From the UHGV virus genome UHGV-1398520: a stretch of DNA of 4,735 nt. One strand, written 5' to 3'. Source of the stretch: a virus. Position 1 is the first letter of the stretch. Every line of letters starts with the position of its first letter. The position numbers were made by a program, and so were the translations under genes. Positions 1-4,735 of this stretch are shown in pieces. Below the pieces are notes generated by a model, which worked only from the letters and a program-made list of their open reading frames with translations, searched no databases and was not told where the DNA came from.

Positions 1-90
1 AGCACTTCGCATCACTCAGACATGATTTAACATAATATACATTATGCGCACCAATGGTAAGGATGGCGGGAACTGGCGTTACCGGTGCCG

Positions 91-324
91 TCATTGGTCA
101 CAGACCGTAATCCACTGGCCCAGGACGTCTTTCAGGCAATGTTGGCATAAATCCAGTTTTAAGCGATTACTGTCACCAAAAATTGAACCGTATCCAGCTA
201 AGTGATTAACAGACAGAAACTCATTGAACTCAATGTCATCTACCACCGTCTTCGCATGGCGACCACAGCGATCGCAGGTCTTCGCACATAACATTACAGT
301 ATCGCTGGATGTGAAAAATTGCAT
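91..324 (-). CDS. hypothetical small protein (77 aa) with zinc-ribbon-like CxxC...CxxC motif
   Basis: ATG at 322-324 and TGA at 91-93. Strong SD-like GAGGAG about 5-6 nt upstream on the minus strand (reverse complement of roughly 330-337). Cys pairs CDRC and CQHC are about 40 residues apart, plus two further Cys. No family recognised from memory. GC content (about 44% by hand count) is similar to the phage genes. Confidence 0.5.
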   Translation of the reverse strand: MQFFTSSDTVMLCAKTCDRCGRHAKTVVDDIEFNEFLSVNHLAGYGSIFGDSNRLKLDLCQHCLKDVLGQWITVCDQ

Positions 325-395
325 TTTATCTCCTCGTAATGCTGCCGCGCCGAATCAGCAATAACGCTAAAAAAACAGAATTGTTCGGCTTGGCC

Positions 396-440
396 AACCC
401 CTGACACTAACAAAAGCAAGTTTTGTCATTGTCCGGGGTT
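396..440. promoter_or_regulatory. imperfect composite palindrome between the two small ORFs (candidate operator or weak terminator)
   Basis: Outer arms aacccctgaca (396-406) and tgtccggggtt (430-440) pair with one mismatch; inner arms acaaaa (410-415) and ttttgt (421-426) pair around loop gcaag. It lies 2 nt 3' of the 102-aa ORF stop on the minus strand. An A7 run (T7 on minus) at 369-375 is about 20 nt away, so it is not a canonical intrinsic terminator. Confidence 0.3.
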
Positions 441-441
441 A

Positions 442-750
442 TCATATAAACCAATAGACCGTCCTTACGCCATTCTGGTTATCAATAACATAGCCGCATT
501 GTTTCCTTAAAAATTCTTCTGCTAAATCAATGGCTTTTACAGAAATCTCATAAGAAGGAAGTAAAGTGTATCCTTTCCCTTCACTGGCAGCTGCTTTGAT
601 CGCATCCAGAGTATTATCAATCAGTAACAGAGCAAGTGATGCTTCATTTACCTGAGCCGAAGAACTTCTGGCTGCAAGTGTCATTGTTTTTGCTTCTTCC
701 GCTGTAATCGTTCGTTCTGCCAGAGCAGATAAAATCCCATAAGAATCCAT
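442..750 (-). CDS. hypothetical protein (102 aa), function unknown
   Basis: ATG at 748-750 and TGA at 442-444. GGGG SD-like element about 6 nt upstream on the minus strand. Co-oriented with the phage genes, 20 nt downstream of the hairpin that follows gene IV. No signal peptide or recognisable motif. GC about 40% by hand count. Confidence 0.5.
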   Translation of the reverse strand: MDSYGILSALAERTITAEEAKTMTLAARSSSAQVNEASLALLLIDNTLDAIKAAASEGKGYTLLPSYEISVKAIDLAEEFLRKQCGYVIDNQNGVRTVYWFI

Positions 751-771
751 TAGTTACCCCAATCAATAATG

Positions 772-829
772 TCCATTTGATGGATAGCGAGCAGGGCTCA
801 CGCACCTACCCGCTATCCATCAAAGTGGA
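772..829 (-). terminator. long stem-loop overlapping the gene IV stop codon; candidate leaky intrinsic terminator, attenuator or packaging-signal-like hairpin
   Basis: Arm 772-789 (tccatttgatggatagcg) pairs with arm 811-829 (cgctatccatcaaagtgga): 14 contiguous bp, one bulged G at 825, then 4 more bp. Loop is 21 nt (790-810). On the minus strand it is followed by the A/U-rich ACAUUAUUGAUU. The gene IV stop TGA (820-822) lies inside the right arm. Confidence 0.4.
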
Positions 830-2085
830 CGAATGATATGTGCTGTAAGCAAAATATACATAATACGCTGTTCATTGCTGTCTGCCTTGCTACTGAAAAT
901 CCAGCCTATAAGAGGAATTTTACTTATAACTGGAACTGAACGCTCGGCATTGCTGAACGATGAATCGATAAGCCCTCCCAATAACAACGTCTGACCATCC
1001 TTAATCTGGACTGTCGTCTGAATCTGGCGCTGATTAGTAATAATATCGGATGCCTGATCATCATTGCTGATTGAATCAGCGCGAGTGTCGATAGTCAGAA
1101 CTAGTTGCCCGTTACCCATGACAACAGGCGTTACCTTGAGAGAAACGCCAACATCATGACGCTCGATAGTCTGAAACGGATTATTTACCCCGGCAGATTC
1201 GCCCGTTACCTTTCCGGTGATAAACGGCACATTCTTACCTACGGAAATGTAACCAGTCTGACCAGACTGAGTAAGAATACGCGGCGTTGAAATCACCTTA
1301 GAGCGTGAATTACTCTGGACAGCACGCAGAGACAGCGCCAACACGTTACCATCAAAAATACCAAAAGAACCGCCCGCCGTAGAAAGAGCGCTACCCAGTG
1401 CAGAAGTATTAAAGCCCCCCGCAACCTTATGACCGGATGCAGAACCTGCCGCAAACGATAAATCAACGCCATCAGACAAGCTGGTTTCAAACATCAGCGA
1501 CTGAATGAGAACCTGATCGCGGGCAACATCCACAGAATTGATAAAATCGGACAGAACCGGCAGCAGCTCGTCAGGCGCAGAAACAATCAGCGAGTTATTG
1601 CCTGGATAATCCACGACATTACCACCACCATTAGAATCAAGATAAATTTTAATCAGTTGCTGAACATCGGACGATCTAACTTTTGTCAGCTTAAAATTTC
1701 TGACCGTAAGCGCCACAGGTACTGGCTGGTAAGATGGCTCAGAAGGAAAAGTATCATAAGACTGGTTATCAGAATCATCGGAATCCGAAACCATCTGTGA
1801 AGGTAATTTAGACGGCAAAGAGACTACCGCAGGATTGCCAGAAAGCATGACAAAACCGTTAGCATTCAGAACAGACTTAAAGAAATCATCAATATTTGCT
1901 GGATTAACATCAGCATTAAATACGGTTACGTTTCCTTTAATATCAGGATTAACAATAACAGGCTTGCCAGTTTTTGAAGAATACCACTGAACAAATGAGC
2001 GAACAGATGAATTATTTAAATTAACAGTTTCAGCAGAAACGCAGAATGAACAGGCAAATAAAAAAGCAACAATAACAGAGCGCAT
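820..2085 (-). CDS. IV: filamentous-phage secretin pIV (outer-membrane export channel)
   Basis: 421-aa product from ATG 2083-2085 to TGA 820-822. N-terminus MRSVIVAFLFACSFCVSA has signal-peptide character. C-terminal VPVISKIPLIGWIFSS and the GGSFGIFDG / NPFQTIER blocks align with M13 pIV as I recall it. AGGAG lies about 10 nt upstream (fwd 2096-2100). The track ORF extends to ATG 2176-2178, but that extension overlaps gene I and has no homology support. Confidence 0.9.
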   Translation of the reverse strand: MRSVIVAFLFACSFCVSAETVNLNNSSVRSFVQWYSSKTGKPVIVNPDIKGNVTVFNADVNPANIDDFFKSVLNANGFVMLSGNPAVVSLPSKLPSQMVSDSDDSDNQSYDTFPSEPSYQPVPVALTVRNFKLTKVRSSDVQQLIKIYLDSNGGGNVVDYPGNNSLIVSAPDELLPVLSDFINSVDVARDQVLIQSLMFETSLSDGVDLSFAAGSASGHKVAGGFNTSALGSALSTAGGSFGIFDGNVLALSLRAVQSNSRSKVISTPRILTQSGQTGYISVGKNVPFITGKVTGESAGVNNPFQTIERHDVGVSLKVTPVVMGNGQLVLTIDTRADSISNDDQASDIITNQRQIQTTVQIKDGQTLLLGGLIDSSFSNAERSVPVISKIPLIGWIFSSKADSNEQRIMYILLTAHIIRPL

Positions 2086-2092
2086 AATAATA

Positions 2093-2467
2093 TTACTCCT
2101 GACAGGTAACAGTCTGTAAATAACGGCCTTTTCTAATAACAACACGACAGGCATCTTTAATATCAACGGAATAACCATCTTTAATCAAATCAAAATACTG
2201 ATATTTCATACCTTTTGCATCAACAAACGTAACGGAAACGTCAAAGCCAAGTTGTGAAAAAGAATTAATAGAAAGTCGGGGTAAGTCACTGGACGAATCA
2301 GGCGTTACCGCCCTCGCCTGTTCAGCATAAGCAGATTTAATAGCTGAGATTTCATCAACATTCTTTCCAGACTGGAGCCAGAAACCAAACGCAAGCCCCA
2401 GCGCCAAAAAAGAAAGCATTAATATAAGACGGTTCGATTTGCGAAAATAAATTTTAGTGAGGCGCAT
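2093..2467 (-). CDS. XI: pXI, in-frame internal-initiation product of gene I (C-terminal 124 aa)
   Basis: In-frame ATG at 2465-2467 is Met241 of pI, the same relative position as the pXI start in Ff phages (MRLTKIYFRK here versus MKLTKIY in M13 by recollection). GAGGA lies about 12 nt upstream. It is immediately followed by the transmembrane segment. Inferred by positional homology only. Confidence 0.5.
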   Translation of the reverse strand: MRLTKIYFRKSNRLILMLSFLALGLAFGFWLQSGKNVDEISAIKSAYAEQARAVTPDSSSDLPRLSINSFSQLGFDVSVTFVDAKGMKYQYFDLIKDGYSVDIKDACRVVIRKGRYLQTVTCQE

Positions 2468-3187
2468 ATAATAATTAAATCCTCTGTGAACAGAAAATTG
2501 ACCGTGCGTGATAAATGGTGGCAAAAGCGAAAATGCGCCATGAGGATAATTATCTGTGAACGCTTGTTTGGTATTGTAAGCAGAATAAAGAGATTTTCCT
2601 GTATATATCCATTTATCAACAGTGATTGAATTAACATTATCACCATATTTGACAATGCCAAAGTGTACCTTTGGTAAAGAAAATCTCGCCCCTGAAACCA
2701 AATTCATAATGGAGCCAACAAAAGGAATGTTTAATTTATCTGAACGGCGACAATAAACAACATGCTCAGCAAGCGCCAGACGAGCTTGCTTATCCATTAT
2801 CGAAATATCCTGAATCAAAAATATAATATCCCAGCCTAATTTTCTGGCATGTAAAAACCAGTCAATAACAGGTTGCCTGTCTTTATCACCCCATGAGCGG
2901 GAATTAAACCAAGTACCACATTCATCAAGTACAAGGAGGCCATTACGGGATTCATCGTAAGATGTATTCCCAGTACCAATAGCAAGTAAATCATTTAATG
3001 AAGGTTTGTCAGGAATGCGAATAACGCGCGTTTTTTTCGCATAACGCCCAACCATAGGCATATTATGCAATTTAAGATCAAGATTAGTGGCAACAGGACA
3101 ACCCTTAGCAAGTCTTTCCTGTATTCTGGAAACACTAACAAGTGTCTTGCCTGAGCCTAATTTGCCTGTTACTACATAAACCGCCAT
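2093..3187 (-). CDS. I: filamentous-phage assembly protein pI (Zot-like P-loop NTPase)
   Basis: 364 aa, ATG 3185-3187, TAA 2093-2095. Walker A GKLGSGKT (aa 8-15, nt 3143-3166) and Walker B-like LLVLDE (aa 84-89). Long collinear similarity to M13 gene I protein as I recall it (MAVYVVTGKLGSGKTLVSV..., QDISIMDKQARLALAEHVVYCRR...). Hydrophobic segment LILMLSFLALGLAFGFW matches the pI transmembrane helix. AGGGTGA SD-like element upstream. Confidence 0.9.
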   Translation of the reverse strand: MAVYVVTGKLGSGKTLVSVSRIQERLAKGCPVATNLDLKLHNMPMVGRYAKKTRVIRIPDKPSLNDLLAIGTGNTSYDESRNGLLVLDECGTWFNSRSWGDKDRQPVIDWFLHARKLGWDIIFLIQDISIMDKQARLALAEHVVYCRRSDKLNIPFVGSIMNLVSGARFSLPKVHFGIVKYGDNVNSITVDKWIYTGKSLYSAYNTKQAFTDNYPHGAFSLLPPFITHGQFSVHRGFNYYMRLTKIYFRKSNRLILMLSFLALGLAFGFWLQSGKNVDEISAIKSAYAEQARAVTPDSSSDLPRLSINSFSQLGFDVSVTFVDAKGMKYQYFDLIKDGYSVDIKDACRVVIRKGRYLQTVTCQE

Positions 3188-3529
3188 TTAAATCACCCTG
3201 TTTGCATAATCAAGAAATTTTTGTTTTAAATCGAAAACAAAAACACTGATACGAGTAACCATAATAACGTTAACACACGCCTGAAAATGGTCAGGCAATA
3301 CAGACGCCATTAAATGGGAGAAATCAGCAGGTAAACCGTTATACATGACCTCAGCAAGGTACTGCATTAAAAGCGTAACAGTTGTTGTAATTAATGCGAC
3401 CAATGCAAAGGCAATTAATCCTGTTCTGGTAGCAAGTCGAGCTAAAAAACTCGCCACATAGCCAATAAACAAAGGAACAAGACCAATAAGAAAACGCAAC
3501 AATGCAGGAATACCTAATAATAAAGGCAT
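3188..3529 (-). CDS. VI: minor coat protein pVI
   Basis: 113 aa from ATG 3527-3529; the track M at 3530-3532 is a GTG one codon upstream. TAA 3188-3190 directly abuts the gene I ATG. Hydrophobic small protein MPLLLGIPALLRFL... and C-terminal VFVFDLKQK resemble M13 pVI (MPVLLGIPLLLRFL..., IFIFDVKQK by recollection). GGGGGTGA SD-like element upstream. Confidence 0.85.
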   Translation of the reverse strand: MPLLLGIPALLRFLIGLVPLFIGYVASFLARLATRTGLIAFALVALITTTVTLLMQYLAEVMYNGLPADFSHLMASVLPDHFQACVNVIMVTRISVFVFDLKQKFLDYANRVI

Positions 3530-4694
3530 CACTCACCCCCTTTGCGAAGCAATGAAGTTAAAGAAGTAAAGACATACCAGAACGTAAGGCAATAAAAAAC
3601 CCATGAAAGAACATCTTTAATAGTCAGTAATTTATCGCAACCAATATCAATCTGATAAACCTCTCCGGGAAAATAATAAAATCAGAGCAGCCGTTACCAT
3701 TGGGTAAATTAGGCAGCATAGCACCTTTATTTAAAAATGCTTCCCATAAAGCACCGTGAGAATCCTTTTCAATTCCCAATTCAGAATCAGCTAAAGTAGA
3801 AGCGCCATCTAATTCAGAGTCGCCCTTTCCATAACGAGAATCACCACCTGAAGGGTCAGCAAAACGGCCAGCCCCCCGCGTAAGATTGTTAATGGAATCG
3901 TCAAGACGATTTATATTATTCCTGGTTTGTTCATCGGCATTTTTTTTATCATCTGATGAAGTGTCTTTCTCCGTTAATTTATCATGAATATCGCTGGCTA
4001 TTTTGGGTGAAGCACCTTCGATCGCAGACTGAATATCACCTTTAGAAAGACTGGAACCACTAGAGCCACCGCCAGAACTACCGCCACCGGACTCACCACC
4101 GCCAGACTCACCACCACCGGACTCACCACCACCGGACTCACCACCGCCGGACTCACCACCGCCGGACTCACCACCGCCGGACTCACCACCGCCAGACTCA
4201 CCACCACCATTTTGGGGGGTTGAGGGTTTATCAGAGGGGTCAGCTACAGCACCTGTAGGCTTCCATGTTGCAGCGCAAACAGTACCATCACCCTGACAAA
4301 CAATGACACCAGTAGCCTCATATTCACAGCCGTTATAGTAGATATAGCGACCACCATCATATGAATCAACATTATTAAATACACCTTCTTCTGGCGGCTT
4401 CGCTTCACAAATTTCTTCTGGTGTCGGGTCAGTAGGTTTTTCATCAGGAACAGAACGCTGAATATTACCAACAATATAAGCCGTTAAAGACCAATATTTA
4501 TCCTTCTGCCCTGGTGAATCGCTGTAAGTACAATCGCCAGTAAAAACAAGACGGAATTCAGAATCAGGCCAGATACCCTCATAAGTTGGTTTAATCCGAG
4601 TAAATACACTCTGAGCACTGGATTTAGCACCCTGACAAGCGGAGGCCTGCATAGCAGCATCAATATAGTAAACCGTTATCGGTAATGATTCCAA
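3529..4694 (-). pseudogene. III: gene III (adsorption/minor coat protein pIII) interrupted by a single-base frameshift; N-terminus atypical
   Basis: Frame A (3624-4694) encodes an N1-like domain (EICEAKP...[26 protein letters not shown], aligning to M13 N1 SCLAKP...YEGCLWNATGVVVCTGDETQCYGTW), a (GGGES)8 linker and the start of the C-terminal domain (NKGAM...). The conserved C-terminal anchor is only readable in another frame (3529-3672): [47 protein letters not shown], aligning to M13 ...GKPYEFSIDCDK...YVFSTFANILRNKES. The frame switch is at fwd 3667-3673 (ggg aaaa). The frame-B stop TGA overlaps the gene VI ATG (TGATG). There is no signal peptide; the track start is TTG (4692-4694) with no SD. 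Confidence 0.65.
4050..4208 (-). repeat. tandem 15-bp repeats encoding Gly-rich linker (GGGES)x8-(GGGSS)x2-GSS within gene III
   Basis: Near-identical 15-nt units (ggactcaccaccgcc / agactcaccaccacc on the fwd strand) repeated about 10 times. They translate on the minus strand to GGGES repeats at aa 163-215 of the frame-A product. Confidence 0.9.
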
Positions 4695-4735
4695 CTTATT
4701 GATAGTGTTTTATGTTCAGATAATGCCCGATGACT

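Follow-up and report, generated by a model that had tools for sequence, protein, structure and literature searches.

Among the closest described systems are the prophages CUS-1 of Escherichia coli K1 and YpfΦ of Yersinia pestis, which are integrated at dif, carry two unknown ORFs next to attR and have puvA as their gene III (PMC4266046). The puvA gene of CUS-1 has been linked to the in vivo fitness of E. coli K1 (PMC4266046). The stretch of DNA analyzed here (4735 nt, referred to as the window) carries on its minus strand the morphogenesis half of a filamentous phage, with a gene III remnant (gIII'), gVI, gI, gIV, and two small ORFs. The same layout, gIII'-gVI-gI-gIV-orf102-orf77, is also annotated in E. 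coli UM146, VL46, and MB51. Judged from its sequence, the filamentous prophage is IKe-like and of the CUS-1/YpfΦ type, and the window holds its distal half, at the E. coli chromosomal dif site. An earlier note on this DNA had described a frameshift in gene III and was silent on a second lesion, the cut made by IS1 at the 5' end of the same gene. We consider it very likely that gene III has inherited a 1-nt deletion (T5 to T4) as well as the IS1 truncation, and that it is a doubly disrupted pseudogene of a non-viable prophage remnant. The features of the window are as follows:

25–52, minus strand: dif, the canonical 28-nt E. coli site, at the attR end (exact script match to GGTGCGCATAATGTATATTATGTTAAAT on the minus strand)
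91–324, minus strand: orf77, intact conserved hypothetical gene by attR (77 aa; 0 nt differences from VL46, UM146, and MB51)
442–750, minus strand: orf102, intact conserved hypothetical gene by attR (102 aa; 0–1 nt differences from the relatives)
776–824, no strand assigned: inverted repeat, candidate terminator or packaging (morphogenetic) signal (arms 776–795 and 805–824)
820–2085, minus strand: gene IV, intact, outer-membrane secretin pIV (421 aa; Pfam Secretin 5.7e-43, Secretin_N, and GspD N0)
2093–3187, minus strand: gene I, intact, Zot-family assembly ATPase pI (364 aa; Pfam Zot 4.7e-41)
3188–3529, minus strand: gene VI, intact, minor coat protein pVI (DUF5455) (113 aa; Pfam DUF5455 6.6e-09)
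3529–3669, minus strand: C-terminal segment of gene III with the hydrophobic membrane anchor, now in the -1 frame (translation; relatives)
3624–3626, minus strand: premature TGA closing the shifted gene III reading (translation)
3624–4680, minus strand: gene III remnant in the original frame, puvA-type attachment protein (Pfam and alignment to intact pIII)
3670–3673, minus strand: gene III lesion, plus-strand A4 (coding T4) where relatives have five (single alignment gap)
4066–4205, minus strand: tandem array of 9.3 copies of a 15-nt unit, encoding the GGGES linker of pIII (Tandem Repeats Finder)
4681–4735, no strand assigned: IS1 terminal inverted repeat and adjacent sequence (end of homology and matches to IS1 ends)

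The 28-nt match to dif, the XerCD target, directly adjoins the prophage end, and relatives with another chromosomal flank start matching the window at base 25. By this exact canonical site, the element can be recognized as a filamentous prophage integrated at dif. Among complete E. coli genomes, 47 hold more than 80% of the window; in the 30 of these that were listed, identity ranges from 98.4 to 99.8% and homology ends at 4677–4680 in every case. The UM146 prophage is 99.6% identical to the window over 25–4680. In the E. coli relatives, the region is a complete prophage with replication (II/X), DNA-binding, G7P, major-coat, 'attachment protein', DUF5455, Zot, and secretin genes, and it is sometimes present in tandem copies. 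At positions 6001–16678 of the VL46 record (L001), the prophage occurs in at least two tandem copies, like the arrays reported for YpfΦ.

All five genes other than gene III (gVI, gI, gIV, orf102, and orf77) have the lengths found in intact relatives, contain no internal stops, and show 0–8 nt differences. Gene IV differs from its relatives at 1–2 nt and gene I at 3–8 nt, each with zero internal stops, and the exact gene VI protein is already on record as 'Head virion protein G6P'. Internal to gene I, just upstream of a transmembrane segment, lies Met241; pXI of the Ff phages starts at codon 241 of gene I, the same number, which suggests that a pXI equivalent may be encoded here. The inverted repeat at 776–824 has 20-nt arms that are 90% complementary and a 9-nt loop, and it overlaps the gene IV stop; its position makes it a candidate for one of the two kinds of signal given above. 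The orf77 product, annotated as hypothetical in the relatives, gave only a sub-threshold zinc-finger match in a Pfam search, and CxxC...CxxC motifs are present in it. A Pfam search with the orf102 product returned no significant match. Both ORFs lie between gene IV and dif, in the position described for the YPO2280a/YPO2281 homologs in YpfΦ/CUS-1.

The frameshift in gene III lies in a short homopolymer. At this place the window has ATTATTTTCCCGG (T4) on its coding (minus) strand and intact relatives have ATTATTTTTCCCGG (T5); the plus strand correspondingly has gggaaaa at 3667–3673, with the A4 run at 3670–3673. Alignment with VL46, MB51, and UM146 revealed exactly one gap, and the flanking sequence (about 280 nt) was otherwise 99% identical. 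The 1-nt homopolymer indel proposed in the earlier note was thus confirmed against three intact relatives, and its direction can now be specified as the loss of one T from the coding-strand T5. The deletion sits at codon 384/385 of gene III. Frame A runs through codons 49–385, continues for 16 out-of-frame codons, and then reaches the premature stop at 3624–3626, which is where the note had placed it and where translation puts it. The last 45 codons, from G386 to ...WYVFTSLTSLLRKGGE and the TGA at 3529–3531, are shifted into the -1 frame. As had also been proposed, this frame (frame B) carries the pIII C-terminus, its TGA has one base in common with the gene VI ATG (3527–3529), and F-P is read in both frames across TTTTCCCGG. 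The comparison with related phage gIII genes that had been recommended as a check gave T5 and one ORF: in intact relatives, gene III is a single ORF of 420–430 aa, and its C-terminus is identical to the frame-B peptide of the window. The expected size of the restored ORF also has to be corrected, from about 390 aa to about 430 aa for the intact gene, because the visible 5' end in the window is IS1 and not gene III.

The T5 allele appears to prevail in a wider set of genomes. A 71-nt stretch of gene III was carried by 48 complete E. coli genomes, and 47 of these differ from the window in a way that fits T5: 43 match at 98.6% over the full length, as one gap would give, and 4 more match at 97.2% or over 96–99% of the length. 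The single match at 100% is in E. coli EC5502 (NZ_CP092647.1), where 15 places match the gene III stretch. Nearly all genes in the prophage copy concerned (26318–33388) carry a frameshift in their annotation. This looks more like noise from the assembly of a long tandem array than like biology, and EC5502 was therefore rejected as an independent occurrence of T4.

Homology searches identify the gene as one for an inovirus attachment protein (pIII/G3P) of the IKe type. The pIII of an intact relative is 51% identical to IKe pIII from end to end and matches PDB entries 4eo0 and 4eo1 (IKe G3P domains) and 8b3o (f1 pIII including the C-terminus). Its pilus-binding domain, PF21443 (G3P_pilus-bind), covers positions 2–105 of the 105 in the profile (E = 2.4e-25) and matches 4eo0 (IKe G3P); the window remnant covers only positions 41–105 of 105 (E = 2e-18), since the first part of the domain was removed by IS1. 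The TolA-binding domain, PF05357 (Phage_Coat_A), was detected with E = 1.3e-05 (25.3 bits against a cut-off of 20.8) and matches 4eo1, 1tol, and 1g3p. The remnant retains a portion of the pilus-binding domain, followed by the TolA-binding domain and the Gly-rich linker, and it reaches into the beginning of the C domain. The copy number of the GGGES array differs among the window, UM146, VL46, and MB51, and members of the pIII cluster span 440–488 aa, so that the linker is polymorphic in length.

When searched alone against Pfam, the C-terminal piece had no match. However, it aligns to the IKe pIII C-terminus and to residues 343–403 of f1 pIII (PDB 8b3o), in agreement with the earlier identification of the out-of-frame segment as the conserved pIII C-terminus. 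By the 8b3o alignment, the 45 lost residues correspond to f1 pIII from about residue 360 to about residue 406. The segment is thus conserved and identical to that of the relatives, but it stands in the -1 frame, and the remnant has no in-frame C-terminal anchor. In the Ff phages, the C-terminal region of pIII is needed for membrane anchoring, incorporation into the virion tip, and the termination of assembly and release.

The second lesion is at the other end of the gene. Homology of the prophage to its relatives stops at 4680 and IS1 begins at 4681; the sequence from 4680/4681 to 4735 matches annotated IS1 ends in P1, SfIV, RCS47, and others at 96–98% identity. Relative to UM146, 143 nt of gene III (47 codons and two bases) are missing. 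The first 47 codons (MRRKILILSAVLISPFSHA...) have been replaced by IS1, so that the gene has lost its start codon, the Sec signal peptide (MRRKILILSAVLISPFSHA), and 28 residues at the beginning of the pilus-binding domain. The TTG at 4694, given as the start of a 356-aa ORF, lies within IS1, and the opening residues of that ORF do not belong to pIII. Moreover, the replication (gII/X, gV), gVII, and major-coat genes, which lie upstream of gene III in the relatives, are not adjacent in the window.

The remnant is also found outside the window. The exact 342-aa truncated gene III product is on record in NCBI, JGI/IMG, and ENA, where it is encoded by five contigs. Two metagenome contigs, a MEGAHIT-style one from a human gut sample (L006, ERZ920136) and a SPAdes-style one (L007, ERZ1745065), the assembler being taken in each case from the contig name, each match all 4735 nt of the window at 100% identity. 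A third contig, from an NCBI isolate assembly (L005, GCA_003304195.1), has one SNP relative to the window, at 3379. T4 and an identical IS1 junction were present in all three of the contigs read. These three could stem from one widespread clone, and T4 may then be a single mutational event. Neither the window nor any of the three contains a complete genome of a CUS-1/YpfΦ-type prophage, gene III running into IS1 in each. All retrieved contigs with the remnant end within IS1, so that the far end of this IS1 lies beyond them as well as beyond the window; short-read assemblies typically break at repeats such as IS1. L005 and L006 run on past the window into sequence consistent with IS1.

Searches for the two lesions in other collections gave no further occurrence. 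A 42-mer carrying T4 and a 41-mer spanning the IS1::gIII junction each had 0 matches in GTDB species-representative genomes and 0 in JGI metagenome contigs. A megablast search with the junction (4600–4735) against complete E. coli genomes returned no record spanning it, indicating that the lineage is absent from that collection. IS1 may have entered gene III by simple insertion, which would leave the 9-bp duplication GATAACGGT, or may have caused a deletion. Of six fusion ORFs predicted for the 5' side (gIII::IS1), under assumed duplications of 8 or 9 bp and with several IS1 end variants, none was on record.

The isolate contig also provides the chromosomal context. Its flank (ydeO, ydeP, ydeQ, and ydeT) is ordinary E. 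coli sequence at 99.8% identity. A Shigella host was considered on account of the IS1 load, but this ydeO–ydeT flank, compared with E. coli genomes, is ordinary and gives no ground for assuming one. On the same 11-kb contig, IS1 is present at both ends, and the fimbrial usher gene ydeT is called as a 185-aa fragment (5513–6070). Both observations point to a lineage in which IS1 is active and genes nearby are decaying.

We propose the following course of events for gene III. IS1 would have inactivated the gene first, replacing its first 143 nt and parting it from the coat and replication genes, and the T deletion would then have accumulated as a neutral replication-slippage mutation. The loss of the T shifts the frame; translation would stop 16 codons on and leave out the last 45 residues. 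We favor IS1 as the first lesion on grounds of parsimony, as this order needs fewer assumptions. In Ff genetics, pIII lacking the C-terminal anchor is not inserted into the membrane or assembled at the virion tip, and the phage is not released. Here, the loss of the anchor would have no practical effect, since neither synthesis nor export of the protein is possible. Given that the 5' end of gene III has been lost to IS1 and that the coat and replication genes are not adjacent, the phage would be defective whether or not the frameshift were there, and the frameshift is best regarded as one lesion among those of a decaying prophage remnant. The earlier statement that a genuine lesion would make a defective phage accordingly holds in that the lesion is genuine and the phage defective, but not in casting the frameshift as the sole or necessarily decisive lesion, as the IS1 cut is present too. 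The remaining five genes are intact, with at most 8 nt differences each from active relatives, so the inactivation is recent.

The reverse order of events is unlikely, although it deserves to be weighed. On that account, the frameshift came first and crippled virion release in a complete prophage, and IS1 later entered a gene that was already dead. Loss of the pIII C-terminus alone suffices to block the release of Ff phages, and both lesions are always seen together, as would fit either order. However, T4 was not seen with a complete 5' end in any genome or contig examined except in the noisy copy of EC5502, and neutral slippage after inactivation by IS1 requires fewer assumptions. Intermediates of either kind, T5 with IS1 or T4 without IS1, were absent from the GTDB representatives and the JGI metagenome contigs.

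A different explanation for the state of the locus, and a highly improbable one, is that the pVI-pI(Zot)-pIV(secretin)-orf102-orf77 block has been kept under selection while the loss of pIII (puvA) was tolerated or even favored. If this were true, the retained block could act as a domesticated export module, or as a helper set for a co-resident or incoming filamentous phage or satellite. A lesion-free block of five genes is equally what very recent inactivation would leave.

Very improbable, too, is a sequencing or assembly error in the homopolymer, with T5 as the true sequence and gene III open as far as its usual stop. Errors of one base do arise in homopolymers, and the T4 in one copy of the 15-copy EC5502 array, with its many annotated frameshifts, may be an instance. 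Against this, T4 and the IS1 junction recur together in an isolate assembly and in MEGAHIT and SPAdes metagenome contigs, and a five-base run is short for a systematic short-read error. The 47 other genomes, assembled by various methods, differ from the window at the T run. Restoring T5 would still leave the gene 47 codons short at its 5' end. Because independent samples and assemblers agree, we regard the T4 allele as genuine and a miscall as very unlikely, with read-level support inferred from the concordance of the assemblies; the sequencing error that the earlier note had offered as an alternative is set aside on the strength of at least three independently assembled contigs.

The other alternative in that note, programmed -1 ribosomal frameshifting (or transcriptional slippage) at the T run to yield full-length pIII, has a negligible probability: frame B, read from the sequence, is -1 relative to frame A, and tRNA-Phe could in principle re-pair from UUC to UUU on U_UUC, but T ATT TTC does not fit the X XXY YYZ heptamer, T4 is too short for efficient transcriptional slippage, the RNA fold of 3600–3700 (101 nt around and downstream) was no better than that of shuffled sequences (z = +0.43) and thus offers no downstream stimulatory structure, the native start codon and signal peptide are gone through IS1, and the two-frame arrangement is not conserved, as the three aligned relatives have T5 and one continuous ORF and 47 of the 48 genomes differ from the window, an outcome that the note itself had named as refuting programmed frameshifting.

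In practical terms, gene III here should be annotated as a pseudogene (IS1-truncated and frameshifted) of a CUS-1-type remnant, and not as a sequencing error or a recoding site. The combination of T4 and the IS1 junction is a handy marker for one E. coli lineage seen in human gut metagenomes. A natural loss of puvA in a commensal-type lineage is mildly relevant to the literature on CUS-1 and fitness. The event itself is of a known kind in a known prophage family, and it represents ordinary prophage decay.

Comparison with known systems places the locus as follows. The segment lost from gene III corresponds, by the 8b3o alignment, to the C-terminus of f1 pIII, and the loss can be compared with the pIII C-terminal truncation mutants of the Ff phages (f1/M13/fd). 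Those mutants are laboratory constructs in replicating phage, whereas the lesion described here is a natural one, known from sequence, in an otherwise broken prophage. With IKe (Lineavirus, Inoviridae), the prophage shares the gene order III-VI-I-IV and the order of the pIII domains: signal peptide, pilus-binding domain, TolA-binding domain, Gly-rich linker, and C domain with hydrophobic anchor. The stem-loop at the end of IKe gene IV is annotated as a terminator and 'morphogenetic signal', and the inverted repeat of the window is in the same position. The linker repeat differs, being GGGES in the pIII of the window and a sequence of its own in IKe. Furthermore, IKe is episomal and non-integrating and has an intact gene III, whereas gene III in the window is a chromosomal pseudogene. 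Compared by description, CUS-1 (E. coli O18:K1:H7) and YpfΦ/CUS-2 (Yersinia pestis) are integrated next to an intact dif site, as is the prophage of the window (PMC4266046). They also share its arrangement, in which gIII (puvA), gVI, gI (Zot-like), and gIV (secretin) are followed by the two attR ORFs. Unlike them, the copy in the window is a remnant, in which gene III is both cut by IS1 and frameshifted and the upstream genes are not adjacent.
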